A DNA stretch of 63,999 nucleotides, counting the filler, from Dimargaris cristalligena (lineage: Eukaryota), in the NCBI GenBank assembly GCA_003614675.1. It is 9 parts of 9 records of this genome, joined end to end, with 100 filler letters (N's around TTAATTAATTAA, not from the genome) between each part and the next. Parts side by side here need not be neighbours in the genome. Positions count along the whole stretch, not along the records: positions 51,160 to 58,333 come from ML003446.1; 8 more parts are not named here. One strand, 5' to 3'. Shown here piece by piece: positions 7,248 to 63,999 of this stretch; position 1 is the first letter of the stretch, and every line of letters begins with the position of its first letter. The notes beneath the pieces are model-generated. The model was not told the origin of the DNA. It saw only the letters and a program-made list of their open reading frames with translations, and searched no databases. The position numbers and the translations under genes are program-made.

Positions 7248-7347
7248 NNNNNNNNNNNNNNNNNNNNNNNNNNNNNNNNNNNNNNNNNNNNTTAATTAAT
7301 TAANNNNNNNNNNNNNNNNNNNNNNNNNNNNNNNNNNNNNNNNNNNN
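7248..7347. other. Artificial contig linker; identical linkers at 14593-14692, 21931-22030, 29221-29320, 36504-36603, 43783-43882, 51060-51159 and 58334-58433
   Basis: 44 N + TTAATTAATTAA (stops in all six frames) + 44 N. The segments fall steadily in length: 7247, 7245, 7238, 7190, 7183, 7179, 7177, 7174. Confidence 0.99.
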
Positions 7348-7623
7348 TAAATAACTGGGCCCCTCTGGGACTGGTTCAGTTCCTTAGCTTATTTCTTACC
7401 CCTAGAGTTACCTCAATAAACTCCTTATACACTCACCCATTGTATTAGCCAGTAAGTATGCCCACTGCATGTCCCTTGCATTGGCCTGCACTCATCCCTT
7501 ATTGGTTAGTACTAATCCCTCCCTAACACTAGTAGCCCACTTGGCCAAGCCTAAGCCCTGCCTACCATTAGAAGCCTATTCTTAGGACTCTTGATGGAAT
7601 AAGTGTAGTTAACCTGGGTGACA
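7348..7623 (+). mobile_element. 3' half of a Gypsy-family LTR (family A), cut by the contig start
   Basis: Aligns to the 3' half of 16956-17538 (AAATAACTGG...CAATAAACTC...GGACTCTTGATGGA) and ends GGTGACA. Confidence 0.85.
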
Positions 7624-13902: not shown

Positions 13903-14452
13903 TGTTGGCCCACCTAATCCTCTCTAAATATGGGAATAGCTGATTGTCCTGTCTGATCTTGCCTTATTATGCCTTATTACTCTCCCCTTGCTATATAATC
14001 CACTATGACCAGGCCCCAATGCTTCTCATGCAATACTCCAACAGCTGATCCAATATTCCTTCTCTCTTAGTTGAGTCTTCTGGATGCAAGCCCCCTGGCT
14101 GAGGCCCTGCCCCTCACCTCTTCTTTAGTCATCCCATTGCTCTCAAGGACCCCTTGTTATGAGTAGTCCCCACATATAAATAACTGGCCCCTCTGGGACC
14201 AGTTCAGTTCCTCAGCTTATTCCTTACCCCCATAGTTTACCTCAATAAACTCACTATACACTCACCCATTATATTAGCCAGTAGGTGTGCCCACTGCATA
14301 TCCCTTACATTAGCCTACACTCACCCTTTATTGGCTAGTACCATGCCCCTCCCTAATGCTAATAACCTGCTTGACCAAGCCTAAGCCTGCCTACCATTAG
14401 AAGCCTATCCCCAGGACTCTTGATGGATTAAGAGTGGTTAACCCAAGTGACA
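13903..14452 (+). mobile_element. Solo LTR, family A, with 5-bp target-site duplication GATGA
   Basis: Ends TGTTGG...GTGACA. GATGA at 13898-13902 and 14453-14457. Homologous to 16956-17538. Confidence 0.85.
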
Positions 14453-15309
14453 GATGATAAGAAGGGAAAGGTGATGATAGACTTACTGTTCCAAGTGGTG
14501 GCAGTAAGGGGGAGGATTTATACTTGAAAGGGGAAGCCTAAATGAAAAGATAGATGAATAATAGAGAAAGGGAGGGAAGATCCCAGAATATTNNNNNNNN
14601 NNNNNNNNNNNNNNNNNNNNNNNNNNNNNNNNNNNNTTAATTAATTAANNNNNNNNNNNNNNNNNNNNNNNNNNNNNNNNNNNNNNNNNNNNTGCTCTTT
14701 CCAACCTATTTACGACCATAGTTTAGCCAGTAGGTCAAGTTTTTTCCCCATTTTTTAGGTTTTTTTTATGACTTACGATTATTACAGTATTACTCTTAGC
14801 TATAGTTATGTAGTTTGGTCATTTTTTCATATATATACCTTAGTAGCATCCCCTCAGTTGAAGGGACAAGTTAGTTTTGAGATAAATGAATAAATATCTG
14901 TTTTAACTTCACCCGACGAAATTGACGATTACCCTTCACGCAGTTTTACTTTGATTATTATTATCACCAGTTCTATTTTACTTTATTAGTTTCATCTATT
15001 CAGTTCGAAGCCTCAGTATTCTCGAGTACGAAATTGATTACACTGTTTGATTATAACATTTTTTTTGATAACGTTTTTTTTATTTTGACTTTAACAACTG
15101 ACAACGCAAGACAACGACATACGATGCAATGGACGACCCAAAACTCAGCGGCGACTTCCCCAAGGCCACCTCGGTCTCGACCCCCCCAAACCCAGCAAAG
15201 CCCAACGTTCCGCACTATATGACGAAATACGGCGAGCCATCTAGCAGAAAGAAACCGGAGGTTCCCCCTCCTGCCAACCCTCCCAAAGGCACGCCAGTGG
15301 AGTCCCTCA

Positions 15310-16955
15310 AATCATTGGCAACACACCACCCACAGGCTATCCTACCTGCCTAAGCCACCCTGGGCTCAGCAGGATATGACCTAGCTTGTGTTACCCCATT
15401 TAGCCTCACCCCACACCAGTGCACCAAAGTAGCCACTGGGTGGGCCCTCTAAATGGAGCCCCCAATGGTAGCACTTATAAAGGAATGGTGCTCACTTGGA
15501 CTACATTGTGTGGCCATCTAAGGTGGAGTCATTGATGCTGATTTCCATGGGGAAATCCAGGTGCTTATACACAACCTCATGGCAGAGCCCCTCCACTTCA
15601 GGACTGGTAATCACATTGTACAACTTATTTTCCAACAATGTGAATCCCCCCTCCTCCTGGAGATGGCCACACTGAACAAAATCAAACATAGTATCACAGG
15701 ATTTGGCTCTACTAGTACCCAACCTATGGTCCTAGTGGCCACAGTCCCCCCAGTCCAGATGTTATAAGACCAAATAGCTGACCCAGATGTCAAGGACTTG
15801 TGAGATGGAATGGAAGATCATACCCTTTGCAGATTCTGTAGAAAAAACCAGACATTTGTAATTGACAAACAACTACTATACTAATAGGGCCCTGGCAGAC
15901 AGAACCACCTAGTGCTACCCAAGTCCAACAAGCAGCCCCAAAGCAGGCCACCTGGGAGCTGAAACAGTACTACATCACCTCTGCCAGACCATTTATTAGC
16001 CATCCATAAATAAGAACATTAAGGAACACGTCCACAGCTGCAAGACCTGCTAATGCTACTAACAGGCCCCACAGCCCCTGGCCCAACTTGTCACCCCCCT
16101 TACTGGCCCCTTAGACCACCCTGGGATTGATATCATTGACCCATTTAATACCACCCAGAACAGCAATAAGTTCATCATAGCTACCATTGACTATTTTACC
16201 CACTGGCCCATTGCATGCACTATCCTAAGCATCACAGCCCAAGCTGTCATCCAGTTCCTCATTGAAGATGTAATTAGTGTCCACGGCTGTCCCAGGATCC
16301 TGATCTCCAACTGAGGTAAGTAATTTACAGCAAGCATCCCCAGGCAGACCCTGTGCCTCTTAGGGGTAGACCACCAGATGGCCATCCCTTACCACCCCCA
16401 GAGTAATGGAGTCATCAAGCAACTCAACAGCATACTCAAGCATATGATTACAAAATACTCCTCTGGAGACAGCCCCCAATGGGACCAACATTTGGCTCTC
16501 CATCTGTTTGCCTACCACACAGCTCATATCCAAGTTATTGCTAATAAGCTGTTTTACTTAATGTATAGCTAAGACCCCCGTATGCCCATTGATGTGGCTC
16601 TAAACACTGACCCTGATGCCCTCTGAGCCTCTACTGGATCCACCTACATCAACAAACTCCACAACTGACTCAGTGAGGCTTACCAGCAAGTTCATCATAA
16701 GCCAAGCCCCAAACCCATGGACCCCACACAGTACCACATTGGGGACTAAGTCTTAGTTAGGGTTCCCTATGGGCCCCTGTCCCTACAAGCCCCCTTCAAA
16801 GGTCCAGTTTCAATTGAAGGCATCCACAGTAGTAATACATATACCATCACCCCCACTATTCACAATAAATACCTCCAGCAAGAAAAAGTATTTGGAAACC
16901 AGATCATTCCATTTATCAAAGGCCTCAAGGATGAGGCTACAGTAGGAGAGGGTCA
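15310..16955 (+). pseudogene. Degenerate Ty3/Gypsy pol remnant: dUTPase (about 15310-15715) followed by integrase (about 15940-16900)
   Basis: dUTPase motifs SAGYDL, GGVIDADFHGEI, QLIF and GFGST. Integrase motifs HVHSCKTC, IDYFTHW, HGCPRILISN*GK*F and PYHPQSNG. Many in-frame stops. Purine tract AGTAGGAGAGGG just before the LTR. Confidence 0.9.
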
Positions 16956-17538
16956 TGTCAGCCCTTCTAATCTGACTTAATCTGGACATAATAATGGACC
17001 ATCCATATTAGGCCTTATAGTACTATATTTACCTTCCCATAGTCACCCCTGGCAGTATGGGATCATCCTATATCATATAACCTTTCCCTTTCTGGACCTC
17101 AGAGTTCCATCAATCACTCCCAGGCTGATCTAACAACTCTTCCAGTTTCCAGCTGAGTCTTCCATGCCCTTATACCATCCAGTTAGCTAGTTTATCCATC
17201 AGTAGCCTTAGTAATATTTTCCCCCAGGGACCTCCCTTTAGAGTTGTCCCCTGCATATATATAACTGGCCCCCACTGGGACCAGTTAGATTCCTTAGCTT
17301 ATGATTCCCCTTTAGTTTACCCTAATAAACTCTCTATATACTCACTCCCATTATACTAACTAGTAAGTATGCCCCACCTGCATGTCCCTTGCATAGCTGA
17401 CCACATAAGCCTTTATTAGTTAGTATCATCCCTGTACCTAATGCTAGTAGCCTGCTTGGCCAAGTCTGAGCCCTGCCTACTGTTAGAAGCCTATCCTTAG
17501 GACTATTGATGGACTAATAGTGGATAACCCAGGTAACA
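16956..17538 (+). mobile_element. 3' LTR of the dUTPase-Gypsy element (family A, about 583 bp)
   Basis: TGTCA...TAACA termini directly after the polypurine tract. Internal TATATATAA and AATAAA. Several other copies occur in the window. Confidence 0.9.
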
Positions 17539-21930: not shown

Positions 21931-22030
21931 NNNNNNNNNNNNNNNNNNNNNNNNNNNNNNNNNNNNNNNNNNNNTTAATTAATTAANNNNNNNNNNNNNN
22001 NNNNNNNNNNNNNNNNNNNNNNNNNNNNNN

Positions 22031-29220: not shown

Positions 29221-29582
29221 NNNNNNNNNNNNNNNNNNNNNNNNNNNNNNNNNNNNNNNNNNNNTTAATTAATTAANNNNNNNNNNNNNNNNNNNNNNNN
29301 NNNNNNNNNNNNNNNNNNNNCATACTCGTCAGGGGCAGGGGCAGGGGCTCATTCACTCGTCAGGGGCGTACTTCCGATAAGTGCGAAAAATAGATAAAAA
29401 ATAAAAGTAGGTAAAAAATGTAGTAAGTTCACCATACTGGGAATAGGTGCCACCAAAGTTTGTGGTTCTTGGGGAGGCAGCACAACATTATATTATGATG
29501 GGTATTGGATATTATTAAGCTTTAGTGATTTCACCAATAATATACCTCATAACCATTAATCAAATCACCTCCTTTTTACTAT

Positions 29583-30167
29583 TGTCATCCCTCCTAATCT
29601 GACCTAATCCTGACTTAACCATTGTCTGTCCTTATTAGGCCTTATAGCACCATATTAACCCTCCCATAGTTACCCCCAGTACTATGGGATCATCATCTAT
29701 TTTATAACCCTTCTCCTTCTGACCCCCAATGCTTCACACAAAATACTCCACCAGCTGATCCAAATGACTCTTCTGGTTCCCATGAGAGTCTTCCAGATAT
29801 AAAGCTGTCTGGTCAGATTCCTTATCTACCTATACCTTAGTCTTAGTAGCATTTCCCTTGTGACCTCCCTCTAGAGCTGTTCCTGTGTATATATAACTGG
29901 GCCCCACTGGGACTGGTTTAATTCTTTAGCTTATTCATGCCCCCTAGTTTACCCCAATAAACTCTATATATGCTCACTCCCTCACACTAACTAGTAAGTG
30001 TGCCTGCTGCATGTCCCTTGCTTTTACTTGCACTTGTCCTTTATTGGTTAGTACTATGCCCCTATCCTAATACTAGTAGCCTGCTTAGCCAAGCCTAAGC
30101 CCTACCTACCATTAGAAGCCTATCCTTGGGACTCTTGATGGATAAAGAGTGGTTAACCCAGGCAACA
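29583..30167 (+). mobile_element. LTR, family A, abutting a Copia pol remnant
   Basis: TGTCA...GCAACA termini; full-length homology to 16956-17538. Confidence 0.88.
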
Positions 30168-30865: not shown

Positions 30866-30963
30866 AAGGGGAATGTTGGAAATTCATTTCCCCCATCCAA
30901 CTGATTCCGTCTCTGTGATTGGCTCGTCCTATACTCAGGACTATATTCTAGCCTTTACTATAT

Positions 30964-31099
30964 GGGTGAAATTCAAACCAGGTGTATAGGGGTTTACATA
31001 ATACATGCATGGGTGAATATATGTAAGAATAGCTTTTAGCCAGTAATATTGGTCTCATCCAATGGATTTTTCGTTATATAGCCTGAATGAACTTCTCTC
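30964..31099 (-). mobile_element. MITE (family C), inserted in the Copia LTR
   Basis: Imperfect terminal inverted repeats, ATAT on both sides, homologous to 33474-33608. Confidence 0.85.
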
Positions 31100-31150
31100 A
31101 TATCCTTCTTTACCCAGGACTTTGTCCTAATCATTATAACTGCTATTATC

Positions 31151-33347: not shown

Positions 33348-33473
33348 ATCTGGGGGTAGCCTCATTCTGCATTCCCTATTCGGCTGTAAACCTGGGCTAT
33401 GCATCTCTAAAAATACTTTGGAATGGCGCCATGCTTTATTATATATTTATCTTATTTTGTGATAAATATATAT

Positions 33474-33608
33474 GGGAAAGGTTCAACCAGGCTGTATAAC
33501 GATAAATCAGTTGGACGAGGCAAAAACTATTAGTTAATAATGGGTCTCTCATATTTTTCCCATGCGCGTATCATCCAAAACCTTATACAGCTGCACTGAA
33601 TTCCACCC
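33474..33608 (+). mobile_element. MITE (family C)
   Basis: ATAT-GGGAAAGGTTCAACC...GAATTCCACCC-ATAT. Confidence 0.85.
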
Positions 33609-36452
33609 ATATGTATAGAAGAGCAAGTCTCCAGGACTACCGTTGTTAATGTCGAAGACTTGTACTAAATGGGGTACCTTTAATAATATTTATATGGATT
33701 AACTAATCGGACAAATTTTCAGTAGGTTCATGCATTTTTCTAGAATATAAACGATGGAGCCCTGTATACTATATTTAATATGTGTTGTCATATTAACAAA
33801 ATATATAAATGCAATATAGGTACAATTGGCGCTTGGCCTATTACAAAGAAAGGACGTCATTAGAAGGATATACTATGCTACAGCATATCTAATAAACGCT
33901 TATTTACTGACTACGATACCATTATCTTAGAAAATGGCTACCCCAAAAAACATACAAATTACACATACCTACCGTTGGGTTTGTTAAGAATGAGTTTGAG
34001 CGAGTGTAGATGTGTTTAGAAAGGCCAGTTTTATTGTTAGCGGCCCTAGTAGGTATGGATATTAAAGTAGCGAATGTAGATAATGAAGGATATTGTATAG
34101 GAGCAATAATCATCTGAGGACCCGTCTCTGGGATAGCCAACTGTTCCTTTTATACTGGGGTAATTCAAGAACCAGCTAGGCGCATATAGACTTGAACGGT
34201 ACTCACTGGATGGTTCGTATTATCCATGCGGCCTGGATAGGCCCGTCAGTACCCTTGTAGAGTCTCCAAGGTGTACTGGGGATAGAGGTAGAGTGGATAC
34301 CATTAGTGGCCTGGTTGGATGTTTGAATATATATATTGTCTGACTGGTGCTGGGTACCCCCAGTGCTACAGTATTTACAGGTTCACAGAGGCAGTCTTAC
34401 ACGGGTATACTATACCTTCCCTCCCCAAAAAGACTAGGCCAATATCAGCTGAAATAAGGACCTAGCTATGTAACTAAGCTAGTAGCGGCAACTATTATCT
34501 ATTTTACTTGAGAAAAATGCCTTGGAATGCAATACCCGGAAAAAGGGCTATCAGTATTGTCTATTCCTTACTGCCATGCAGAGACTAAATAGCTAGTCGG
34601 CCACTCCCAACCACCCTTTAATAATGGATTTTCGATGTTTGTTGGGCCATTTTAAGGTATCGTTAGTAGTAATAGACCATACCCTCTTCTGTGCGTATAG
34701 TTTGAACTGATATGCCAAGATGCTGCAATGATATCCCACCACCTGGATCAAATAGTGCATAATAAGTCAGAGGTTCCAAAAGGTAGTAGCCAGTCTTAAA
34801 TATACTGCCTTGATTTCGTAGTCACTGTCAACTTGGGGCCATGTTATAGGCTATATAAAGAAGCCCCAAGTAGGGTAGGCAACTCCATTGAATTGCGAGT
34901 AAATTATTTGGCTTGTACCATTGGTAAAGAAATCCATTGAAAACTGACAGAAGGTACATACAATATGGATATCTTCATTGGTAATGAACATACTGAAGTG
35001 CTTCATAGAGCGGTTGCCTCAATAAAAAATCTAATTTTGCACCATTAATTTTTGATTTGGCTATCTTCAAAGTCCCCATTATGGCTCATATTCGTTACTT
35101 GGAGGTAAAGTGTGGAGTAATAGGCTACAATAGATGTTTGTATTGTTGGTTGATACCTCTCCTCCCTGGTGAAGGATGTGCTGCATCATTGGATGCATCC
35201 CATGTCCAATATCTGTTTTTTCCTTCAGTAAGCACTTTGAACAGTAAACACTGTGCAGAGCTCTTCCAGAGTGCAAGTCAATATAAAAATTGAGCAGCAG
35301 CAAATGCAGAACCATAATGCACAGTAGATGCATCATACTAATATATTTTTGAAACAATAGGCATTTCCATTACATTTGTAGACTCAGCTTACTCTCCAGC
35401 ATTACTATCCCCTATTTTCAAATTATAGCTGTATTGTCCAGAGCAGTATAAATACTTCAGAATTGGGCCTTTCATTTACACCCCTTCGTCATACCACCCA
35501 CCTACCTACTTGTGAGTGCTATTTCCCAATCTCTAGCCAGATACAGCCTCTGCCAAATTGTAAGCCCACCAGCCCTTTTGATTTCTCTATCAATTCACAT
35601 ACTCACCAATCCCTTCCCCCTTCCAATAAATCTCAAGTAAGGAATCTAGCACCAATTACCTTACTACACTAACCAAAGTCACATTCCCTCTGACATGACT
35701 GGCACCCTGATACATAGTAACTAAATCTCTTATTCATGTGTAGCATTTTTTTTCAATCAATATACTAATATGTGATGAGAACCATGTTGACTCACATTCC
35801 TAACTACATGAGCTCTACCACTTCTTCTTGTGCTTGTCAAGTTACTTCTGCCAAACCTCTTGCTCCAAAGGTAATTGCATCAACCTTCTTTTAATACTAC
35901 TCATGGCTATATTATTATACCCTACCCATTTGGCTATACATTGGTTATTGCCTATTTTTTTTTAACCCAATATCTCATATAGTTCACTTAAGCTACCAGG
36001 GGCCAGAGCCAACAAATTAAGTGTGGGGTTGCAGTTGCTAATGCTGGCCAGTCAGTGGCCCATAGCCGGGGTAATTTCAATAAAAAACACCACTCCCACA
36101 CTATCAAAAAACCCCAGGCTAATGTGCCAAAGCTGAAGCCAAAGACTAATATCTTGGTTACTGTTATACCTACAGCTAGAGCAGGGACCAGCCCTGGCCA
36201 CTGCAGCAACCCAGCCTCCCTGGATTCCATTGAAATAACTGGGGCTATAACCCCAGAAGTGCCAATGGCAGACTAGAGTGGGTTATATACATACATTAGT
36301 GTTAATAACAATATATATAGTCCCTTACTCAACCTTATCAGAGAATACTAATAGGCCAAATGAAAGTGTGCTAGCTGTACTCATTGATTCCTTGGTTTAT
36401 TAGTTTTTAACTCTTATTCACTAGCCATATACTACATATTGCTTATATATAT

Positions 36453-36503: not shown

Positions 36504-36603
36504 NNNNNNNNNNNNNNNNNNNNNNNNNNNNNNNNNNNNNNNNNNNNTTAATTAATTAANNNNNNNNNNNNNNNNNNNNNNNNNNNNNNNNNNNNNNNNN
36601 NNN

Positions 36604-43782: not shown

Positions 43783-43882
43783 NNNNNNNNNNNNNNNNNN
43801 NNNNNNNNNNNNNNNNNNNNNNNNNNTTAATTAATTAANNNNNNNNNNNNNNNNNNNNNNNNNNNNNNNNNNNNNNNNNNNN

Positions 43883-50974: not shown

Positions 50975-52352
50975 TGGTGTTGTGGCCGGGCCTGCTTAAT
51001 CTCTAATAGCATATCCCAGCCAAACTATTTTTAGTTTAGAAAAGATGAAGAACATCACTNNNNNNNNNNNNNNNNNNNNNNNNNNNNNNNNNNNNNNNNN
51101 NNNTTAATTAATTAANNNNNNNNNNNNNNNNNNNNNNNNNNNNNNNNNNNNNNNNNNNNCCCCCCGTTTGGCCCAGATGGATACCATCTCTACTTGTTCG
51201 TTTTCGAGTAAGCACCCATTTTCTTTACTACCCGCATTTGTTTTGGAAGCTATTTTCCCCAAAGAAGCTCCAAATTATCGCTGTCAATGGGAAGTTTGGG
51301 CCTTGTACACTTTAGTATTCCGTTTTATGATAAAAGCAGCACCATCTACTCCTCCAAGGCCCGCCCACGTGCATTGGTGTAAATATTATATTAGTCAATC
51401 ACGTAACTATCGCACTTGAGTCCATTGGATAGGCACCTACTTGATTGGGCGTACCTGTTAACCTAGACTAATTAGCCAGGAGGGAATGTCAATTTATATG
51501 ACCTTGCCTTACTATAAGTTACTAAATAATATGGGTGTGTAAAGAGACTTGCATAAATGCTAGAAATATGGTGTCAGTTCTTAGGGTAATATAAGGACAA
51601 TGTCTACACAGATCTGGGATGTCGAAGTAGACAGTTGCTATAGGAATCAGGTTTCTTAAAGGATAACCATTAGCTACTTGGCAGAATAGATAAGAAATGT
51701 GTTAATTGCGTCCCTCTTAATCGTGGGGAATTGAGGAAGTCACTCCCAGGCAATTCATCGTCTTGGTCTAAGGCCTACTTGGTAAACCTGACATTCTGGC
51801 CTGTTCAGTGCGGTCCCCATATGGGGCAGCCCTACTACTATATCCTATTGTAAAACAAACTTTTGTTACCAACTATAATCCTAACAGTTAAGTATGTTAT
51901 TCATAACTTTCAGTTAACATTTTCAGTACTGAATTACTTGATTTTTGTATTGAGACTCTTCCGCCGTTTTGTAAGATGTAGTGACATTTATCCACTTTCA
52001 TGGTTTTTCGCTTTGCATCCAAAGTTACGCCAATACCATACGATAATTAGTGTATTATACTGCTAGTGACGAATATTTAGAGCCATCCGTATTCTCCTCG
52101 CTCTCCTATTAGCATTTATGCATTTATAATGGTCATTGCTGGATGTAGACATTCGCCCATTTAGCCTTGACAACTACACTCGCACAGTCATGGGGTGAAG
52201 ACAGTGGTAGTATTCAGATAAATGAAAAAGTCCTTCTAGGGCTGATAAGCCAAACGAGTCAGCCAAAAATAGTCTATAGTGGCTTATATTAGACTATCTC
52301 GAACTTCTGGTGATAGGCTAAAAAAATTCAATAGTATCATACTTGACTATAT

Positions 52353-52488
52353 GGGAGAGGTTCAACCAAGCTGTGCAACGAAAAATCCGTTGGATGAAGT
52401 GAATATCACTGGTTAAAAATAAATCTCCCGTATATTACCCCATACATGTATCATTTAAAACCCTATACAGCTGGGCCGCATTTCACCC
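52353..52488 (+). mobile_element. MITE (family C)
   Basis: ATAT-GGGAGAGGTTCAACC...ATTTCACCC-ATAT. Confidence 0.85.
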
Positions 52489-53200
52489 ATATGGTTGGGG
52501 TGGCACCGGGCCAATCAATGGACACCTGTGGTTGTGAAATAGGGAAACATCGGCAACGAGGGAAAGGGCATTGGGTGGACCCATAGGTCCACAAGTCGAA
52601 CCATATATTATCCTGTAACAGCCGTCTCAACCACCAGCAACTGTGGCTTAGTTCTACGTCCTTCCGGGTATTATGGGAGAGAAGGGGGTTGGAGCAATCT
52701 GCTATAGGACTTCCAGGGATAGATGCCAGATGAAGTGCATTCACAAGGTGATGGCTATATTTTTGTAATATTGCCACCCAACCAATATATGTACCCGAGC
52801 ACACCATGTACCCCCATATAAGACTTGGTGAAGGTACTCTCATACTTTAGTGTTACCGATCTACGCCTAATAATTGACCTGGGAGTGAAGAGAATATAGC
52901 GAATTGGCCCTTTGGAACTATTCAATTCATTAAAAATCCAGGGAGAACAGGCGGATTTCTCTTTTTGAGGTGTATAAATAGACATAGCTTCGCCCCCCGT
53001 ATTCAACGGCCATCTACTCCATCATCCACTACACCTGGGATACACCGTGAACAACTTTATTGCCCGCAAATTATTCGCCACATTAGTTCTTCGCCTCCAA
53101 CTACTTCACCGCACTATTCCTTTTTTTCTTGACAGGAACTCCCGCCCGCCCAACTTAGCTGTCTTTACTTTTATACCCTCCACTGTCTACCCTTAGCAAA

Positions 53201-53941
53201 ATGCGTCTCTTTGGAGTAACTTCCCTGCTCATCCTGGGCGCCCTCGCCCTCAGCCATGCCGCCGACCAGGACAATCACGATATCAACTTGAATGACTTCG
53301 TCAATGCCAGAAGCCCTGAAATTGGATACGAAGATGCCATTACGGATCTGATCCAAGGCCCCTTTTTTAGGGAAGCGACCTGGCAAGAAACTTCCGAGTA
53401 CCTTGGAGGGCTTAACGGGAATGAGCTGACCATGTACATTGGTTTACTCGAACACTATATGGACGACGAGGAAGTTGAACGAGCCCACTTCAATGAACAG
53501 GAAACATCCCTTGACTATATTGTTGGAGGTCACCACGAAGATTCGGTGGTCAACACAGCACGCTACCGGGCCGAGGCCAGTGGTTCTGGCTCGGGAAGTA
53601 GTAACCGCTCGGCCCAGACACTCCGACCTCTCGCTCCCAAAACATCGCACGGAATCCCCGCCGATGTGCAAGCATGGGTTGGCCATATGCAGCCCATCTA
53701 TGAGCAAATGAAGAAGGATTTGAATCATCGCTTCGACTGTCCGGTATGTAAAAAAGAATTTACTCAGCGCTATGCTCGCGATCGTCATCTGCGCATTCAC
53801 ACAGGTGAAAAACCTTATGGTTGCGATCAGTGTGGTAAAGGATTCGCGCGTAAAGATAAACTAAATTTGCATCAATTGAAAGACAAAAACTGCAGTCAAG
53901 GCGCAAACTGCCCCCCCGGCAATGAATCACACAAGCTATAA
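53201..53941 (+). CDS. Protein with signal peptide, acidic region and two tandem C2H2/C2HC zinc fingers (246 aa, intronless)
   Basis: MRLFGVTSLLILGALALSHA-AD N-terminus. CPVCKKEFTQRYARDRHLRIH, linker TGEKPY, then CDQCGKGFARKDKLNLHQLKDKNC. TATAAAT at about 52973. Confidence 0.88.
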   Translation: MRLFGVTSLLILGALALSHAADQDNHDINLNDFVNARSPEIGYEDAITDLIQGPFFREATWQETSEYLGGLNGNELTMYIGLLEHYMDDEEVERAHFNEQETSLDYIVGGHHEDSVVNTARYRAEASGSGSGSSNRSAQTLRPLAPKTSHGIPADVQAWVGHMQPIYEQMKKDLNHRFDCPVCKKEFTQRYARDRHLRIHTGEKPYGCDQCGKGFARKDKLNLHQLKDKNCSQGANCPPGNESHKL

Positions 53942-54271
53942 GTAGGTAAAGCCAGTTGAGGTGTCTTATCACTTTCAGGCAGTTTTGCTGACCGTAACCA
54001 GTGCGATTTTTTGGTCCTACTACCTCTTGTTCAAGCCAACCTTTCCTTTAAAATGATTTTGTTAAACAAGCTAAATTGTGTTTTGGATTTGACCATTAAA
54101 TGTAGAACTGGATAATACATAGCCACATTGTAATTGTGACTAGTGTATACTACACTAATTGAATAAATGGATTATTGAAATATAAGTTTATCTTGTAATT
54201 ATTTTGACTAGGCCCATTACCTTTGCTACATCTTTAATTTTTCTTAATTTATACTAACACATTTTCTACAG

Positions 54272-54576
54272 TGTCACTCATACTAACTAACTCCAATCTA
54301 GCCCAGTTAGCCTGTAACTATATAAAGCCATATTATGCCATACTACCCTTCCCTTAGCCATATATAGTACTATAGGAATATTATATATTATTATATCTCC
54401 TTTCCAACCCAAGGCTCTGCCTTCCCACTACTCACTTAAGGGTTAACCCTATGACTCTTCCAGTGACTATTAGGGTTTTTAGATACCAGTATCCTTTTAT
54501 CTTAGTAGTATTCCTCATAGGATGCTCCCTCTAGAGCCATCTCTATATATAAATTATGGGGTTCTATTATGGCCAA
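54272..54576 (+). mobile_element. Older, more decayed family-A-like LTR fragment
   Basis: Starts TGTCAC. Contains the CCCTCTAGAG...TATATATAA segment shared with family A; cut by the younger LTR. Confidence 0.55.
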
Positions 54577-55159
54577 TGTCAGACCTTCTAATCTAACTTA
54601 ATCCAGACACTATACTATCCATCCCCATTAGGCCTTATAGTACCATATTAACCTTCCCATGGTCACCCCTAGTACTATGGGATAACCCTATATCATATAA
54701 CTATTCCCCTTCCAGACTCCTTAGTTTGCACTAATTACTCCTGTGCTGATCTGATGACCCTTCTGGTTCCCAATAGAGTCTTCCAAGTCCTCATGGCCAT
54801 CTGGTTGGCCTATTTATCTTACCTTAATCTTGGTAGTACCTTCTACTGGGGACCTCCCTTTAGAGTCATCCCCTGCATATATATAACCAACCCCCATTGG
54901 GACCGGTTCAATTCCTTAGCTTATTCTGACCCCCTAGTTTATCCCAATAAACCCTATATATGCTCACTCCCCTTATACCAACTAGTAAGTGTGCCCACTG
55001 CATAACCCTTATATGTACCTACATCCAGTAACCTTTACTAGTTAGTATTATGCCCTTACCTAATGCTAGGACCCACTTGGCCAAGTCTAAGCCTCATCCA
55101 CCATTAGAAGCCTATCCTTGGGACTCTTGATGGACTAAAAGGGGTTAACCCAGGTGATA
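54577..55159 (+). mobile_element. LTR, family A
   Basis: TGTCAG...GGTGATA termini; full-length homology to 16956-17538. Confidence 0.88.
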
Positions 55160-56516
55160 GGCCCCACTTGGCCTGCTTAGTTATAATATAGTCCAACTAA
55201 ACCACACCCATATGTAAGATTGGTCATAGGATATTGGTAAATCATATATAATAGTGCCAATAATTATGGTATTATCCTATAGGCTAAACTATAAAAAAAT
55301 AGCTCTAACCTACTATAGGTAAATATAATTAGATTTTATTAAATAATTATCCTTTGGGAACATCGGGTTATATGATGACGTCATATATTTATATCATGTC
55401 ACTTTTAATTTTTATTATCAGATCAGATGGGTCAAAATGTAGTGAATTTTTAGAAATATATCCCCATTGATGACCCTAGAAATAAAGGTATGTGCACTCA
55501 GACAAAAAAAAATCCAATGAACTGTCAGGGCAGTAGGTGATTGGATCATGAAGTTTTAATCCCGTGATTTGGGATAATCATAAATACTCATTGGCCAATG
55601 ACTAGGAGGGAAAGTCATGTGATAATGGGGAAATATCACCTGCTTTTGTATGACTGGTCACAGGTTCCTTCCACTTGCAGGGGGATACAGAATAAATCGT
55701 TAATAGATACTCCATATCCCATGCTACTTGACACCAAAGAGTTTATGATAACTCCCCATCCTTCTGGACCTATAGAAAGCAGCACCACCACTAGAGTTTA
55801 CTATCAGTTTATCTGATACTTACTTGGTATATACTTTACATTCATCCTTTGAGAATCTCTTCAACCATTCTTCTTTACTTGCTCCTTTATAAATCTGAAT
55901 TGAGTCTTTGTTCAACATTACCAGTAAGCCTTAACTAGGGTTTTCCAACTCCATTTTCTTCTCTGACCCTCCTATTTACACCCTCTACTTACTTACCAGT
56001 CACTCTTTAATTTTGACTTTATTGGACTGCCAGGCCTTAGTTCTGTCCATATCTCCTAAAGGTCTTTTAGGTGAAACCCCTTTTTCTTTTTGGAAAGCAT
56101 TCTTCGGTGACACAGCCCTTTTCCTAACCACAATTCGCTGTAGTCTTTTATTTTCAGGTCTTTGGCACCCCGAAGCTGAATCCATAGGCTTAACCCTAGA
56201 AGCCATTGAATAATCAGCGAGATTGACCCCCTCCCTCCATTTTCGTACTATATTCTTCTAGTGAATTTCTTTCCTTGTAAACTTCCCTTAGTCGAACTAC
56301 TACAGGCCACCGTTCCTCCTTGATTCCTGGACAGGTGGAAATATTCCTTCACTCCGCATTTATCATTGCTTTTCCAACACCGTCGCTCGTTTTAGCGGAT
56401 ACCCGCTCCTTCCAATTGTTCAGCGCTTTCCAATCGGCTCTTCTTAATTGGCGCGTACTTCTCAGGGTACACCTTGCACAGCCCCCAAACCAGGCTTTTC
56501 GCCAATCTTTTATACA

Positions 56517-58333
56517 ATGGTAAGTGTATCTATCGTCGAGTACCCTGCTTCTGGTGCGTCCTATTGCCTCGAATGCTGGGTACTTATCACTTTAACCACC
56601 GAGAGGTCGAATTGTCTTTCCGTTCACCATCGTCCTGGGGTGCTTGCTGTTTAATGTTTGCCCCTGTCTGGTCTTGAAAACTGGAGCTACCAAACCAACA
56701 TACATAGTAGGACATAGGGCTATCTGATTACTTGGTTCCATTGTTGCTCTTTTCATTCAAGTGACCGCCCAAAGCCACACTATACTCATTTTTCATAGTC
56801 ACCCCTCAGGCTAAGCATATTGAGTAAACAATTAATTCAAAAAACAAACAAATAATAACTAGCATCGTGTCTTTCTAATACCCTCCTATTTGATACCCCC
56901 TGCAACATCCCTACAGACAATGGTTGGCCCTGATTTAAAGACGGAACAAGTACTCTGGACGGAGCCGATACAGCTTCCCTACTCCCTCCAAGAAAATAAC
57001 CCGCTTCTACCAACCGCTAGTCTACCTATGGCTATGGATATCACTGACTCGTGTTCCTTACCTTTAGTTTCCTCCTCCCCGGCCGCGTCTCCAGCACCGA
57101 CCTTAGTCGCGAACCCAGTGGCCACTGTCGTTGATTATGTGTCCCCTACGAAGCCTCCTGAACACACCCCAGCGGCTACCGAAGCTGCCTCGGAGGAAGA
57201 AGAAGAGCTATATGAGGTCGAGAGTATTGTCAACCATCGGAGGGTGCGTGGGACCGTCGAATACCTTATTAAGTGGAAAGGGTACACCGAGGAGTGGAAT
57301 ACCTGGGAGCCTCGCAATAACCTGAACTGCACGGCTTTGGTCCGCCAGTACTATCGGTCCTTGAACAAGGCCTCAGCCCCGGCCAAGCCAACTTTTAAGA
57401 GTACTCTAGATAGGTTTTTGGCAAGCAACCCCACACCTACAACGACATATAGCCCATCGCTTCTAGCCTCAACACCCGTTACTCACCCGGAGCCAGTCCC
57501 GGTCCAACCTTCGGCCCCAACCCCAAAAGCCCAACCACCCGTGGTAGCCGACCCTTCCTGGCTACCTCTTAAACAGGAAATCCCCCAGAACCCCACAGCT
57601 GGGATTAGAAAGACCGCGGCCTCGACCAAGCGGGGCCAGCGCCTCCGTCGGGGGCTTCACTCCGAATCCATCGACGTGGTCCGGATGAAGCCCAACATTA
57701 GGCGGTTCCTGGATGCCGTCTCCCACGCCAAGGGGCCACCCATTTCCGTGGTTAACGAAGTGGACGACGACGGCCCACCACTGACGTTCACCTATATTGA
57801 CAAGTCCATCATCGGACCGACTATTACGCCCCCCGACCCAGGTACGGCCCTGGGATGCCAATGTCCCCATAACTGTGATGGCCTTTCGTCTACCCATGAC
57901 TGCCTGTGCACTTTCCACACGGATAGGCAATGTGCCTATGATTTGAATGGCCGACTCACTCTGGCCCCCGGGTTCCCCATCTACGAATGTAATTCCAAAT
58001 GCCGGTGCGGGCCTCGGTGTCCCAACAGGGTGATTCAAAAGGGGCCCCAAGTCAAGGTGGAAATCTTCAAGACCGTCAATAAAGGCTGGGGCGTACGGGC
58101 CCGCCAGGCCATCCCCAAGGGCACCTTTATCGCGGAATACGTTGGCGAAATCATTAATGCGGCGGAAGCTGATCGCCGGGCAGAGGTGTACGATGGCATC
58201 GGCATTACCTATCTTTTCGACCTGGACCACGAAGTCCCCGCCGAGCAGTCCCCTGAATACACCATTGATGCCTACCATTGCGGTAACTTTTCGCACTTCT
58301 TTAACCATTCGTGCGACCCTAACCTGGCCGTGT
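56517..58333 (+). CDS. clr4: Clr4/SUV39H histone H3K9 methyltransferase (chromodomain, pre-SET, SET), 3' truncated. Probable ATG-only first coding exon 56517-56519, main exon from 56917
   Basis: Chromodomain YEVESIVNHR...YLIKWKGY...NTWEP. Pre-SET cysteine cluster ECNSKCRC...CPNRVIQ. SET motifs KGWGV, YVGEII, YLFDLD and FFNHSCDPN. Confidence 0.95.
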
Positions 58334-58997
58334 NNNNNNNNNNNNNNNNNNNNNNNNNNNNNNNNNNNNNNNNNNNNTTAATTAATTAANNNNNNNNNNN
58401 NNNNNNNNNNNNNNNNNNNNNNNNNNNNNNNNNTCAATTGGAACTTTCATCCAAATCGTTATATAGCTTGATTGAACTTCTCCCATATTGATGGTAACGT
58501 TAACCAGATTCAATGGTATATATCTTAGGCATTTTTATCACGTGACCATTCTTCCCAGCCTTCTGCATCTAAAATAGCCTATTGCGGATGTAGGAGTTGG
58601 TCCAGGTATATTTTATCCAGTGGTAAGTCAGTCGCACAAAATGCCTGCTTGGTTAGGGAAAAAAAATATCGAGAAAATTGGTTGATGAACCAGTAGTAAT
58701 GATTGAAGCTCAGCGTTTGTAAAAAAAAGCCGTTACTTCGGTTATGTTCAACTATTGTACAGGTGGAATTTGTCCAGCTACGTTAGCTTTTCTTTCGAGT
58801 CATTCAGTGGGCCCTTTGCCAGTTATTCGACCGCAACTTTGCTGCCGTTCCTGTTCCTTTAGGAGTATCCTTGTTAACCCATTCTACTCGCCCCCCGTAT
58901 AGCTCACTGGTGGTGTACACGTCCATTCCCGATTTAAGTTACGAGGCCGATCTCCGAACCTAGTTGCCTTTTCCCTTTATTTTACTCATTATTCACC

Positions 58998-61900
58998 ATG
59001 GCCCAGGAAACGGCTACTGACCTTTATAATGTGAGCCTCTTCCAGCTCCAAATGGAGGAGCTTCTCAAAGAAGTGCGTCTGCCGTATGCCACATTTACTC
59101 CCCTCCAACACGCCCTTCAGCAACTTCGCGAGCTTTTCACCCAAATCGAAGCTCGTGCTGCCCAACCCATTCATGAGGCTGTTAGCGCATTCCCCGCCCA
59201 ATTCTCGGACCGCGTAGCCCTGCCATTTCCGCCCGGTCTGCCACTGCCGGAAGCCAAGTGGACGATGACCGTCAGCCCGCCGCAAAATTTAAATGTGGCC
59301 GGTAGTTTTGGTTTGCAGACCGCTGTATGGACGCACCAAGGCTTTAATGTCGATATGACGGTGGAGATGCCCGATTCTCTGTTCGATGCGCGGGATAATA
59401 ACCACCATATTTATTTCACCAAGCGGGCCTACTATTTGGGCGTGCTGGCGGCGGCCCTGATCAACCATGTTGACCCGACGTCCGGCCTGCCCTTGACCGA
59501 GCATTGGGACATTGGTTTCGCCTCTCTGCGTGGCGACCCCCGGCGTCCTATTCTAATCATCCGAGCCCGGCCCGACCAGTCTGAACTTGATTTCTCGGCG
59601 ACCCGCGCTACGATTCGCATTCTACCCGTGCTCTCCGCTCAGGCTATCCCCCACCGGCGACTCGAGCCTACGTTCAACAGTTTCCCGGGGATTATCAACC
59701 CGGCCGATTCCCCCGACGGGACCGCCAGTACCCCAATCTATAACTCCCTGATCCTCGAGGATGCCCTTATTACTTCCCACCTAGAGTACCTGTACAAAGT
59801 AGTGAGCGGCAGCTCCCACTTTAGCGATGCCTGTGCGCTGGCGAAGGTTTGGCTGAGCCAGCAGGGCTACCGTAGCGACAATGAGACGGCCCACCAATTT
59901 AACGGGTTTGTTTGGTCCATGCTATTAGCTTACCTGCTCAAGGCCGGCGGGTCTAAGAATAGTCGTGTGCTTTCCAACCAAATGACCGGCTACCAATTAT
60001 TCCGAGGTACTCTCAACTTTTTGGCTACCCATGACTTTGCGGATCAACCGCTAATCTTCCGCAAGGACGTACAGGCCCAGCTCAATGACCATCAAGCCGT
60101 GGCGGCTGCCCCCTATCTGTTTTTGGATCCTACGGGTAAACTCAACCTTCTCCGAATGGTGAGTCCCGCCGAAATGAATTACCTTCAGTACAAGGCCCGT
60201 CTAACAATGACCCACATGAGTGATTCCGAGGGCGACAATTTCGTGGCGCTATTCCTTCGCCCCCACACCGATCCCCTGCTTGCCTTTGATTACCACCTCA
60301 AGCTCCAGGATATCGTTACTTCCGATTTTCCTCTAAGTCATATTGACGCGGTCACCAAGGCGCCCCAGGTAAATGATACCGTCAACCGGCTGCAGGACCT
60401 TCTTGTGCGTGGCCTTACCGACCGGGTTCAGCTGATTACTATCATTCCGGCTGCTCAGGCCGCCTGGGCACTCAATAGGGTACCCCCTACCAAAACCGCT
60501 GTTTCGGCCACCGTAGGTCTGATTGTGGATCCCGTCAACTCCACCCGCCTGGTGGATCGGGGTCCGTCTCCCGAGGACGAAGAAGCCGCTCAGGCTTTCC
60601 GTAAGCTATGGGGTAAACGGGCTGAATTGCGTCGATTCCGTGACGGCACCATGCTCGAATCCACCGTATGGGAACGCCAGACTACCGACAGTCGGGCCCT
60701 AATTATTGTCGATATGGTCGCTTATTTATTTGGTCGCCATTGCCCTTCACTAGCCAAGGACCTGGACTACATTCCCGGCCGGCTTTATGCCACCATCCTG
60801 GCCGACCCCCACCGAATTGATATGCCCGGATTCCAGAACTCGTTTGCGGAACCGCTGCGGGCTTTTAATGACCTCGTTCAGCAGCTCAAGACCTTGTCCA
60901 AGTTGCCCTTATCCATTACCGACATTAATCCAGTGTCGGCGAATTTGCGTTACACGTCCCTGTTTCCCCCGGCTTCAGCGCTAAATGCCATGCATCTTCG
61001 TTCGAAAAGTCCGTCTAACGAACTGAATACCCACTTTTTGGAACCCATGGAGGCCAACCTAGTTTTGGCTGATTCAGTGCGTTGGCCCGCCGACTTGGTG
61101 ACCATCCAAGCCTTTAAACGGGTGTTTTTCGTGAAATTGCAGCGCTGTCTGGCCCAAGCCCGCCCAGCCCATGCCAGTGTCGTGGTGGCCCCCGAGTACG
61201 CGACCCACCAAAGCCCCATCCACCCTTACACCCACCTGGATATTATCACCGCTTCAGGGTTCCCCGTTCGACTGTGGCTCCATAGCCCCCAGGAGTTGGA
61301 GATGTTAGAGCAGCTGGCTTTGGATCCCCAACGCCCCCTCACCGTGGCCCCTCAGCTCGAACTCCGCCGGATATTTGCCGATTACGTTACGCAGTTTGTC
61401 CGTCGCCCGTGGCACCACGCCCGCATCCGCTACCTGTGCCAGAACCACCCATCGATGGCCCAAACCATCCGACTAGTGAAGCGCTGGACAGCCGCCCACC
61501 AATTAGGCCTCACCGCCACCACGTTACCCGAAGAGGCCCTGGAACTCATTGTGGCCCAGGTGTACTTGTGCCCCAGCCCCTGGTCAGCCCCCGGTAGCGG
61601 AGTGGCTGGCTTCTTCCGCACATTGCACTTGCTGGCCCACCATGACTGGAAACGGGAACCACTTATTGTGAACATAGAGGAGTCGATGGAACCCCACGTG
61701 CGTGACGAAATTATGACTGAATTCAAACTGAACCGGCAGTCGAGTTCGACCGCCCACCTGTCCGGCCAGGTCGAGGCCAGCGGCCCCGGCCGCAAGAAGC
61801 GATCGGCTCCCGAACCGACGGGCGTGCTGGCCCCCAAAGGGAATCTGATCCCCATGTATATTGCCACGGCCCAGGACACCCAAAGTCAGTGGTGGACCGC

Positions 61901-62549
61901 CGAACACCCGCAAAAGGTGGTCCTCAATCGGCTGGTTGCCTTGGCCCAGGCGTCTCTAGCGTGCGTAGCTGATTCCAATGACTCTACTAAGCAAATGACA
62001 GCCCAATGGGCTAGCCTGTTGACCCCCTCCCTTGACCATTTCGACCTACTCCTCCACTTGAACCCGAAGGTAATCACTCGGCGCTGGCAGCGTCTTGACC
62101 TGCCCGCCTTTGTCCACGTTAGCTGCCTCACTCCCGATCATTACCTAGAAAAGAACAAGGATGGTTTAACAAAAGCCCATGATACCTCCGCGGATTCGGT
62201 TGCCTCGCGTCTCAAGAAGGTCGGCCCCGTTGCCGTAAACACTATTGGATTCGACCCTGTGGCGATGTTCCTCCGGGACCTACAAGCTATTTATAAGGAT
62301 ACTTTGATGTTCTTTGCTGAACCCTATGGGTCTAATGTAGTTGGAGCCCTGTGGCTTCCCGGTGCTGCTAAAGAACGCCCGCTGCGGAGCGATTCGCAGT
62401 TAAACACTGTGCCCGTTTCCCGTCTATCGGACGAGCCATCCAAATCTTCTTCGGGCCAGGTTACCCTAAACGCCGACATTGTTATCACCGAAATCAAACG
62501 ACTAGGCGAGGGCGTCATTAAGAGCATTACAGTCCAGCGTCTTCCATAA
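58998..62549 (+). CDS. UTP22: Nrap protein / U3 snoRNA-associated Utp22 (NOL6), 1183 aa
   Basis: SLFQLQMEELL, VAGSF, DMTVEMP, YFTKRAYYL, FRKLWGKRAELRRFRDG, IRLVKRW and GFDPV motifs. Confidence 0.95.
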   Translation: MAQETATDLYNVSLFQLQMEELLKEVRLPYATFTPLQHALQQLRELFTQIEARAAQPIHEAVSAFPAQFSDRVALPFPPGLPLPEAKWTMTVSPPQNLNVAGSFGLQTAVWTHQGFNVDMTVEMPDSLFDARDNNHHIYFTKRAYYLGVLAAALINHVDPTSGLPLTEHWDIGFASLRGDPRRPILIIRARPDQSELDFSATRATIRILPVLSAQAIPHRRLEPTFNSFPGIINPADSPDGTASTPIYNSLILEDALITSHLEYLYKVVSGSSHFSDACALAKVWLSQQGYRSDNETAHQFNGFVWSMLLAYLLKAGGSKNSRVLSNQMTGYQLFRGTLNFLATHDFADQPLIFRKDVQAQLNDHQAVAAAPYLFLDPTGKLNLLRMVSPAEMNYLQYKARLTMTHMSDSEGDNFVALFLRPHTDPLLAFDYHLKLQDIVTSDFPLSHIDAVTKAPQVNDTVNRLQDLLVRGLTDRVQLITIIPAAQAAWALNRVPPTKTAVSATVGLIVDPVNSTRLVDRGPSPEDEEAAQAFRKLWGKRAELRRFRDGTMLESTVWERQTTDSRALIIVDMVAYLFGRHCPSLAKDLDYIPGRLYATILADPHRIDMPGFQNSFAEPLRAFNDLVQQLKTLSKLPLSITDINPVSANLRYTSLFPPASALNAMHLRSKSPSNELNTHFLEPMEANLVLADSVRWPADLVTIQAFKRVFFVKLQRCLAQARPAHASVVVAPEYATHQSPIHPYTHLDIITASGFPVRLWLHSPQELEMLEQLALDPQRPLTVAPQLELRRIFADYVTQFVRRPWHHARIRYLCQNHPSMAQTIRLVKRWTAAHQLGLTATTLPEEALELIVAQVYLCPSPWSAPGSGVAGFFRTLHLLAHHDWKREPLIVNIEESMEPHVRDEIMTEFKLNRQSSSTAHLSGQVEASGPGRKKRSAPEPTGVLAPKGNLIPMYIATAQDTQSQWWTAEHPQKVVLNRLVALAQASLACVADSNDSTKQMTAQWASLLTPSLDHFDLLLHLNPKVITRRWQRLDLPAFVHVSCLTPDHYLEKNKDGLTKAHDTSADSVASRLKKVGPVAVNTIGFDPVAMFLRDLQAIYKDTLMFFAEPYGSNVVGALWLPGAAKERPLRSDSQLNTVPVSRLSDEPSKSSSGQVTLNADIVITEIKRLGEGVIKSITVQRLP

Positions 62550-63364
62550 TAGATTTAAGCTCTAGTCCCTCTTCGTACCCTCGTCTAGAGATTGGCCAAG
62601 GTTTATCACTTTATATTTTTCAGTTTACTTCATTCTCGTTTTTACAGCCTTAATCATCTATGGTATAGAATTTATTTTGGTGCATTAAATTTATAGTACA
62701 CTTTGAAGCAATAGTGGTATGCTGATTATGTCTTCGCGATACTTATCAAGGCAAATATGTTGCAAATATGGCACCTTAAACACAAAATGCCGGGCCAGCA
62801 TGGTTCACTAGTAATGATGCTCATCTTGATATATGAAAGAGATGATGAGAGATACTCGTCAACTCGAAAAACTAGTTATAGGAATACAATTGCCTTGAAG
62901 ATGCCATGGCCCAAGGTACATTAGAATGCTAGGAAGGCTAAGGTTAAATTATACGGTCAATTGACAAATCAAAATTACCACCAGATGAAAAGCATTGAAA
63001 ATTTTACCAGGACATTTTATAAAATGGCATGCTCAATAATACCCAGTCCCGTAGTTAAAATAACTGACCACTTCATACATTCCAATGACACACTACAATT
63101 GTTAACGTGATCATTATATATCTAACAATGGCAAATTTGAACAATTTTAAAGATGGTAAGAAATCTGCCACTTCAGAGTTTTTTTTTAGAACTATATAGC
63201 TGATTAATAAAATATATCACAAAATAAAGCCATCAAGAATAACATTATAATATGTAGAGTAGTGCATCTAATTCTATACTATAACTTAAGTTGTATATAC
63301 CACTACCAGAAGACCATCCAAACTGAATGATGCCAAAAACCAATTTAAGTTCATCAGATAATAT

Positions 63365-63496
63365 GAGAGAGGTTCAACAGCTGTATAACAAAAAATCCAT
63401 TGGATGAAACAAATATTACTGGTTAAAAAAATCTCCTATATATTATCACATATATTTATCATTTAAAACCTTATACAGCTGGGTTGGATTTCACCC
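63365..63496 (+). mobile_element. MITE (family C)
   Basis: ATAT-GAGAGAGGTTCAAC...GGATTTCACCC-ATAT; CpG-decayed copy. Confidence 0.85.
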
Positions 63497-63999
63497 ATAT
63501 GCTGAAGGGCACCTTCAGTGGCCACAATAAATCTCTAACAATTATCAGCCATTATAGGAATTTTCTGTAAGTATTGTAATACATATATAAATAAAAAGCC
63601 TAAAAAAGTTACATATAGCCTGTTTGGCTTAGATGAAGTAGAGTTATATTTAAAGTGAATCTAAGGCAGGCAACCTTTTGGCCATAATTTGCCATCTATA
63701 GTGAATATAATAAAGGATAAATGGCTCAAAAACCCCCAAAAGCTATAAATAAAGGGGGAAAGGATATGGGGAGGACAATAAACAGACCCTGGGAAGAAAC
63801 CAGGCCCTTATGGCAACCTACCCAACTTAGCTGGACAGGAGTTATTGTTATTATCAGTAAGGTGGGGGGCCACAGGACAAGGTCACCACCAAGGTAGAAA
63901 AATAATAGTAACTAAACTAAACTAAGCAACTAGCCTAAATGGCTGGGGAAGGGGCAGGTAGCCTAGAGGCCAGGGAGGAGGTCCAGATGGTTCCAGAGT

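Follow-up and report, generated by a model that had tools for sequence, protein, structure and literature searches.

Secreted C2H2 zinc-finger proteins that act in the nucleus of a host are already a known concept in the plant pathogen Magnaporthe oryzae. In the available excerpts of the corresponding reports, MoHTR1 and MoHTR2 (Host Transcription Reprogramming) were picked by the joint presence of a signal peptide and a DNA-binding domain, are secreted, enter rice nuclei and bind the promoters of immunity genes (PMC7672089), and MoHTR3 is described as carrying a signal peptide, a nuclear localization signal (NLS) and a C-terminal C2H2 domain and as being confined to M. oryzae (PMC10189765). 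Here we analyze a gene of the fungus Dimargaris cristalligena (positions 53201..53941, plus strand) encoding a protein of similar description, in which a signal-peptide-like N-terminus, an acidic module and two zinc fingers follow one another. The gene lies in a stretch of 63,999 nucleotides from assembly GCA_003614675.1, hereafter the window, and had been singled out by an earlier reading of the same DNA (the original prediction) as a candidate transcription-factor effector exported into a host cell.

The genome study of D. cristalligena describes this species and its kin, in its available part, as biotrophic mycoparasites (PMC6784888), in agreement with the parasitic lifestyle that the original prediction had assumed. 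As far as the excerpts on MoHTR1-3 go, the Dimargaris protein has in common with them a length of less than 300 aa, a hydrophobic N-terminus (a signal peptide in the MoHTR proteins, signal-peptide-like here), a C-terminal C2H2 domain and a lineage-restricted occurrence. The MoHTR proteins belong to an ascomycete parasite on a plant host, whereas here the setting is a mycoparasite on a fungal host. MoHTR1 and MoHTR2 were likened to the single-finger GAGA factor (available part of PMC7672089), whereas the Dimargaris protein has two fingers joined by a TGEKP linker; likewise, MoHTR3 has a predicted NLS (available part of PMC10189765) and none is evident in the Dimargaris protein. No relative of the acidic N-terminal module was found outside D. 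cristalligena among 1,835,955,588 representative proteins, and the likeness to the MoHTR proteins is by description only. In that search the N-terminal 175 aa matched only proteins of D. cristalligena, which makes it unlikely that the protein is homologous to MoHTR1-3 beyond its fingers.

TAL effectors and the BATs of Burkholderia/Mycetohabitans in Rhizopus microsporus share with the reading discussed below the idea of DNA-binding proteins delivered to control a host, and the BATs of the Rhizopus endosymbiont mark Mucoralean fungi as targets of DNA-binding effectors, according to the available part of PMC10746252. These proteins are bacterial, depend on type III secretion and read DNA through 33-35-aa repeats instead of zinc fingers, and they have no sequence or structural kinship with the Dimargaris protein, in which no TAL-type 33-35-aa repeats with repeat-variable diresidues are present. 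The comparison with TAL effectors and oomycete nuclear effectors made in the original prediction can be kept for TAL as a functional analogy only, the closer precedent being the secreted C2H2 nuclear effectors MoHTR1, MoHTR2 and MoHTR3. Oomycete Crinklers and RXLR effectors combine a signal peptide, a family-conserved N-terminal module and a C-terminal domain acting in the host nucleus. The modular layout of the Dimargaris protein may resemble theirs, and no RXLR or LFLAK motif was seen in the protein when it was read by eye. A role of the acidic module in delivery is pure speculation.

The novelty attached to the Dimargaris protein in the original prediction was overstated, in that secreted C2H2 nuclear effectors are established in M. 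oryzae; its statement that a fungus-to-fungus precedent was lacking stands as far as our searches go. These literature searches, which did not cover supplementary tables, surfaced neither a protein effector of one fungus acting in the nucleus of another nor any mention of the Dimargaris family.

Protein architecture

The gene is a single uninterrupted open reading frame (ORF) without an intron, as had been claimed for it, and comprises 246 codons plus stop (product P0001). The encoded protein is composed of the following parts.

53201..53260, plus strand: signal-peptide-like segment, aa 1-20, with n-region MR, h-region L3-L17 and c-region SHA, and predicted cleavage between A20 and A21 (from sequence layout and family conservation)
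53261..53575, plus strand: acidic N-module, aa 21-125, 24 D/E against 5 K/R, pI 4.2; no relative found outside D. cristalligena
53576..53731, plus strand: linker, aa 126-177, with SGSGSGS, LRPLAPK, a conserved VQAW and a predicted helix at 154-176 (from alignment and AlphaFold)
53732..53800, plus strand: finger 1, aa 178-200, ligands C180, C183, H196 and H200, contacts Q-1, Y2, A3 and R6 (Pfam PF00096 at 178-200)
53801..53818, plus strand: TGEKPY inter-finger linker, aa 201-206 (PF13465 at 194-217)
53816..53893, plus strand: finger 2, aa 206-231, ligands C208, C211 and H224, contacts R-1, D2, K3 and L6 (PF13894 at 206-227)
53894..53938, plus strand: C-terminal tail with the family-conserved motif NCPPxNE (C237) (from the family alignment)

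The N-terminus, MRLFGVTSLLILGALALSHA followed by AD, begins with Arg2 and a 15-residue hydrophobic core (L3-L17) with a mean Kyte-Doolittle hydropathy of 2.37. Small residues occupy the predicted cleavage site (S18 at -3 and A20 at -1), and acidic residues come after it. The signal peptide proposed originally for these residues is thus recovered as a signal-peptide-like n/h/c layout with S18 and A20 in place. No second hydrophobic segment was found, the best 19-residue window outside aa 1-30 having a mean hydropathy of 0.30.

According to the positive-inside rule of membrane topology, everything after the hydrophobic segment would be lumenal, since a basic residue precedes the segment and acidic residues follow it. 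A membrane-tethered factor of the SREBP or Spt23/Mga2 type was considered and rejected, because the only hydrophobic segment is aa 3-17 and the fingers are predicted to face the lumen. A mitochondrial presequence was likewise rejected on topology and composition.

The mature protein would have a mass of 25.5 kDa, with the acidic N-module at one end and a basic C-terminal part of 72 aa (pI 9.3) at the other. Judged from its composition, the predicted mature protein is laid out like a minimal acidic activator. The very acidic region and the LRPLAPK linker (residues 141-147) reported originally are both present, and the inferred architecture of an export signal, an acidic region and a two-finger DNA-binding module holds at the level of prediction.

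AlphaFold2, applied to a seven-row family alignment, gave a mean pLDDT of 41.6, in which only the fingers came near 60 and the N-module appeared as short helices below 50. The low-confidence model of the N-module fits an acidic region that may be largely disordered. In the ESM Atlas no usable match was obtained for aa 21-175, and the whole protein matched generic zinc-finger clusters only.

Zinc fingers

Only zinc-finger families of Pfam exceeded their curated cut-offs in the protein, namely zf-C2H2 (PF00096, E 6.8e-9), zf-H2C2_2 (PF13465, E 1.3e-10) and zf-C2H2_4 (PF13894, E 7.4e-7). A phmmer search of the PDB returned 228 distinct sequences at E <= 0.001, led by the DNA-bound classical fingers of ZFP568, Aart, PRDM9, CTCF, ZBTB7A and Zif268. 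Finger 1, the TGEKPY linker and the helix contacts are common to the Dimargaris protein and to classical C2H2 factors of the Kruppel/Zif268 type. Those factors are nuclear, lack a signal peptide and close their fingers with H-x3-5-H, whereas finger 2 of the Dimargaris protein ends in H-x6-C.

The pattern C-x2-C-x12-H-x3-5-H is present in finger 1 and absent from finger 2, in which no His follows H224 at the x3-5 spacing. C231 is the nearest residue that could take its place and probably acts as the fourth ligand; by its sequence finger 2 is classed as C2HC-like or degenerate rather than as a canonical Kruppel finger. The original prediction had described two Kruppel-type fingers; finger 1 is indeed canonical, whereas finger 2 lacks the second His and offers C231 instead. 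The canonical TGEKPY linker and the contact residues (Q-1/A3/R6 and R-1/D2/K3) agree with what had been reported.

A protein family restricted to Dimargaris cristalligena

A word-indexed protein search with the ORF protein revealed 397 proteins at E <= 0.001 among 803 candidates. Among the 120 matches listed, three, each of them named Dimargaris cristalligena, cover 74-98 % of the query. Coverage in the remaining 117 is 15-54 % and confined to the finger region, and those that carry a name are mostly animal multi-finger proteins. When the finger-free part (aa 1-175) was compared by phmmer with 1,835,955,588 representative proteins, it gave four matches at E <= 0.001, all from D. cristalligena, and no relative of aa 1-175 outside this species was found in that set. 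A profile of seven N-modules recovered 7 of 7351 candidates of similar length and 1 of 8000 longer candidates, again all named D. cristalligena. Orthologs with the same N-terminus in free-living relatives, which the original prediction had counted as evidence against itself, were not found in these searches, the N-terminal 175 aa having matched D. cristalligena only. Within the window, a tblastn search gave the self match and no paralog elsewhere.

Together with P0001 the family comprises eight distinct loci with pairwise identity of at most 79 %. Five members (P0001, P0122, P0123, P0003 and P0004) form one group with 40-79 % identity and three (P0124, P0125 and P0126) form another with 44-57 %, and identity between the groups is 25-35 %. 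Two of the members come from the assembly of strain RSA 468 and the others from the independent H4R33 annotation. The lineage restriction and the expansion, as far as sequence comparison goes, are typical of effector families.

The N-terminal hydrophobic segment and the initial Met are retained in all eight members, which bears on one of the refuting conditions of the original prediction. The 12-residue hydrophobic maximum lies between 2.04 and 2.63 in every one of them, even between members only 25-33 % identical, and exceeds the crude criterion that we applied (a 12-residue window of at least 2.0). M1, G5, L9 and L12 are invariant across the eight, and a (-3,-1) site is found at residues 19-21 in seven of them. 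In the first 20 residues P0003 and P0004 are identical to P0001 at 16 and 13 positions, respectively, against about 50 % identity in the N-module.

Four members (P0001, P0003, P0004 and P0126) are full-length proteins with two fingers. Across these four the scaffold is conserved and positions -1 and 6 are mostly Arg, while contact position 3 varies (finger 1, A/D/G/D; finger 2, K/Y/V/N). Protein conservation extends over the whole length with paralogs at 47-50 % identity. Three models are short and end before the fingers, namely P0122 (123 aa), P0123 (156 aa) and P0125 (175 aa). In the remaining one, P0124 (BJ085DRAFT_35618, 1491 aa), the N-terminal part with signal peptide, acidic module and SG linker is joined to a multi-pass membrane protein with PF01594. 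P0124 matches P0126 at 57 % identity as far as the last residue ahead of the fingers, beyond which the two diverge, and P0124 probably represents two genes fused by the gene caller. We read all four finger-less models (P0122, P0123, P0125 and P0124) as likely gene-model errors.

Gene model and local signals

An in-frame stop lies 14 codons 5' of the ATG, the 394 nt upstream of the start at 53201 are free of ATG (the nearest upstream one being at 52806), and the start context has A at -3. GC content is 0.50 in the ORF and falls to 0.42 and 0.39 in the sequences on either side. Third-position GC is 0.38 in the part encoding the fingers and tail (53726-53941), compared with 0.55-0.70 in the signal peptide, N-module and linker; the low value could reflect a Lys-rich composition or a separate origin of the finger module. 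A TATA-like element corresponds to the TATA box noted in the original prediction. The local signals are as follows.

52973..52980, plus strand: putative TATA-like element (TATAAATA; TATAAA at 52973), 228 nt 5' of the ATG
53744..53749, plus strand: GTATGT within finger 1, splice donor apparently used by NCBI model H4R33_005507
54162..54167, plus strand: AATAAA, putative signal, 221 nt past the stop codon

The NCBI model of the same locus in D. cristalligena, H4R33_005507 (P0002), is 98.9 % identical to our reading over residues 1-183. Its last nine codons are placed at 54725 onward, within the downstream dispersed repeat, and the implied intron of about 980 nt deletes both fingers. We rejected it as the better gene model, since its nine-codon last exon, about 980 nt distant and within a repeat, would do away with fingers that are present in the paralogs. 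The intronless reading is the better model because the paralogs P0003, P0004 and P0126 read through two fingers.

Proposed mode of action and alternative explanations

We consider it quite possible, if somewhat short of probable, that the protein is secreted, enters the nucleus of a Mucoralean host, binds a short G-rich site there and alters host transcription. The signal peptide (aa 1-20) would be cleaved and the protein would enter the secretory pathway. D. cristalligena feeds through haustoria, a word that is absent from the available part of PMC6784888. Secretion would take place at the parasite-host interface and would be followed by uptake into the Mucoralean host cell. The mature protein may then reach the nucleus without a strong import signal, being small; 25.5 kDa lies below the passive nuclear entry limit. 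There the two fingers would bind a short site in host DNA, which we infer to be G-rich because Arg stands at -1 and 6 and is interpreted by the canonical zinc-finger recognition code. The acidic module may serve as the activation domain that changes host transcription, and the paralogs might address different host sites, since they differ at the position of the finger that contacts the central base of a triplet.

A wider form of this proposal would have an orphan family of eight secreted two-finger activators delivered to Mucoralean nuclei, the signal peptide and acidic N-module that they share serving uptake and activation, each paralog with its own targets, and the whole arisen independently of the MoHTR proteins. 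Taken together, this wider form is tentative and we regard it as rather doubtful. The family members are credible candidates for secreted transcription factors directed to the host nucleus, to the extent that sequence can tell, and the case overall is a good candidate rather than a finding.

Several observations weigh against a nuclear role in the host. The AlphaFold model, with its low mean pLDDT, provides no structural support for a folded N-module, and no classical import signal of the type K-K/R-x-K/R was seen by eye in the protein sequence. N-glycosylation sequons are found at N230, within finger 2, and at N241, behind it, and six cysteines would need to stay reduced and zinc-bound after passage through the oxidizing endoplasmic reticulum. 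P0001 and P0003 lack the canonical second His of finger 2, as does P0004 when only the usual spacing is considered, and DNA binding by the two fingers may be weak or atypical given the state of finger 2. As annotated, fingers are present in only four of the eight family models, the others stopping or being fused before the finger region, and five of the eight members are represented solely by models of one annotation. Finally, 6 of 110 unrelated zinc-finger proteins that came from the word-indexed search and start with Met pass the same 12-residue hydrophobicity criterion. A hydrophobic N-terminus is thus too common to be trusted in one protein, and chance does not readily account for its presence in eight diverged paralogs.

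The proteins might instead be ordinary endogenous transcription factors of Dimargaris nuclei, with the hydrophobic N-terminus forming part of a protein-interaction helix or being bypassed. Fungal activators as a rule have an acidic region ahead of C-terminal fingers, 6 of the 110 control proteins just mentioned also pass the crude hydrophobicity test, and a housekeeping chromatin gene adjoins the locus. In M. oryzae, as stated in the available part of PMC7672089, 20 proteins with DNA-binding domains were predicted to be secreted and few were validated. An endogenous role is at odds with the complete n/h/c arrangement of the N-terminal segment, which has a (-3,-1) site near residues 19-21 in seven of the eight members, and with the fact that between several paralogs this segment is the most highly conserved part (16/20 and 13/20, compared with about 50 % in the N-module). 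A hydrophobic segment at the extreme N-terminus is normally captured by the signal recognition particle, and the lack of any relative found in other fungi would be unusual for a core regulator. We consider an endogenous factor unlikely on this balance. The signal-peptide features apply equally to a protein that is secreted or resides in the secretory pathway and has no role in the host nucleus, the fingers binding extracellular or cell-wall nucleic acid, protein or metal, or being accessory to an active acidic module. Such a function would sit well with the non-canonical finger 2, with the conserved C231 and C237 (in NCPPxNE), which could form a disulfide, and with the failure to see a classical import signal by eye; and if the four finger-less models are taken as annotated, an N-module with variable C-termini is conceivable. 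Nevertheless, finger 1 is of the DNA-reading type, and so are the TGEKP linker and the contact residues. None of the four full-length members has lost the fingers, not even the most distant at 30 % identity, and the divergence of P0124 from P0126 right before the fingers looks like a gene-model error rather than the start of another domain. We regard a secreted protein of this kind, without a role in the host nucleus, as rather unlikely.

An artefact, which might be a pseudogene in decay, an ORF that arose by chance in repeat-rich DNA or a host contig carried over from co-culture, is suggested by the position of the gene on a 7.2-kb contig between dispersed repeats, by the departure of the NCBI model from the read-through ORF, and by the cultivation of the parasite with Cokeromyces recurvatus (PMC6784888). 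For strain RSA 468, the available part of that study reports that single-cell genomics was applied and that spores were shipped, in line with the parasite as the owner of the family. Against an artefact, the reading frame of 246 codons is uninterrupted and richer in GC than both flanks, and it is conserved over its whole length with paralogs at 47-50 % identity. Host contamination is unlikely as judged from the sequence data, because two independent assemblies of D. cristalligena carry the family, the N-module had no match among Mucorales proteins in the phmmer search of 1,835,955,588 representatives, and the repeat families of the contig are common to five other contigs of the window. We regard an artefact of any kind as very improbable, and the secreted factor acting in the host nucleus remains the reading that we favor.

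To our knowledge, almost nothing is known about the molecular control of hosts by biotrophic mycoparasites of early-diverging fungi. If the wider form of the proposal is true, these proteins would be the first fungus-to-fungus transcription-factor effectors. New in comparison with the MoHTR proteins would be a fungus as the host, a mycoparasite of an early-diverging lineage as the source, an array of two TGEKP-joined fingers, an acidic N-module of orphan type and an eight-member expansion with diversified contacts. If the proteins are delivered, a plant pathogen and a mycoparasite evolved transcription-factor effectors independently of each other. These small intronless proteins would then also offer a tractable entry point, their DNA specificity being readable in vitro to find the host genes that a mycoparasite must switch. 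If the proteins are not delivered, the family is still an odd one, made up of species-restricted zinc fingers whose most conserved feature is an export-type N-terminus.

Genomic setting

The window consists of nine contigs of about 7.2 kb, arranged by descending length and joined by spacers of the form N44-TTAATTAATTAA-N44 (7248-7347, 14593-14692, 21931-22030, 29221-29320, 36504-36603, 43783-43882, 51060-51159 and 58334-58433). Because the spacers join separate contigs, any long-range context or inverted repeat across them is artificial, and the real context of the gene is the contig 51160..58333 (record ML003446.1) only. A long inverted repeat pairing 51060-51159 with 58334-58433 was rejected on this account, both arms being contig spacers. 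The other features of the contig are listed here.

52349-52495, no strand assigned: dispersed repeat of about 147 nt, with copies of 76-84 % identity at 30957-31103, 33469-33613 and 63361-63501
54576-55160, no strand assigned: dispersed repeat of about 585 nt, with copies of 75-77 % identity at 16955-17534, 29583-30162, 14161-14453 and 7360-7621
56863..58333, plus strand: neighboring gene cut by the contig end, with Chromo, Pre-SET and SET domains (Pfam PF00385, PF05033 and PF00856), a SUV39/Clr4-type histone (H3K9) methyltransferase

The two dispersed repeat families, with identities of 75-84 %, occur on six of the nine contigs including that of the gene, and no terminal inverted repeats or long terminal repeat (LTR) pairs were found around the gene by which they could be classified as a miniature inverted-repeat transposable element (MITE) or as LTRs. 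The description of the gene as sitting alone between a MITE and LTRs is not borne out by the contig 51160..58333, which carries two unclassified dispersed repeats and the SUV39-type gene. The latter begins about 2.9 kb downstream of the zinc-finger gene. On the next contig, a 1203-aa open frame (58938-62549, plus strand) contains all six Nrap domains of the nucleolar RNA-associated, Nrap/Utp22 type.

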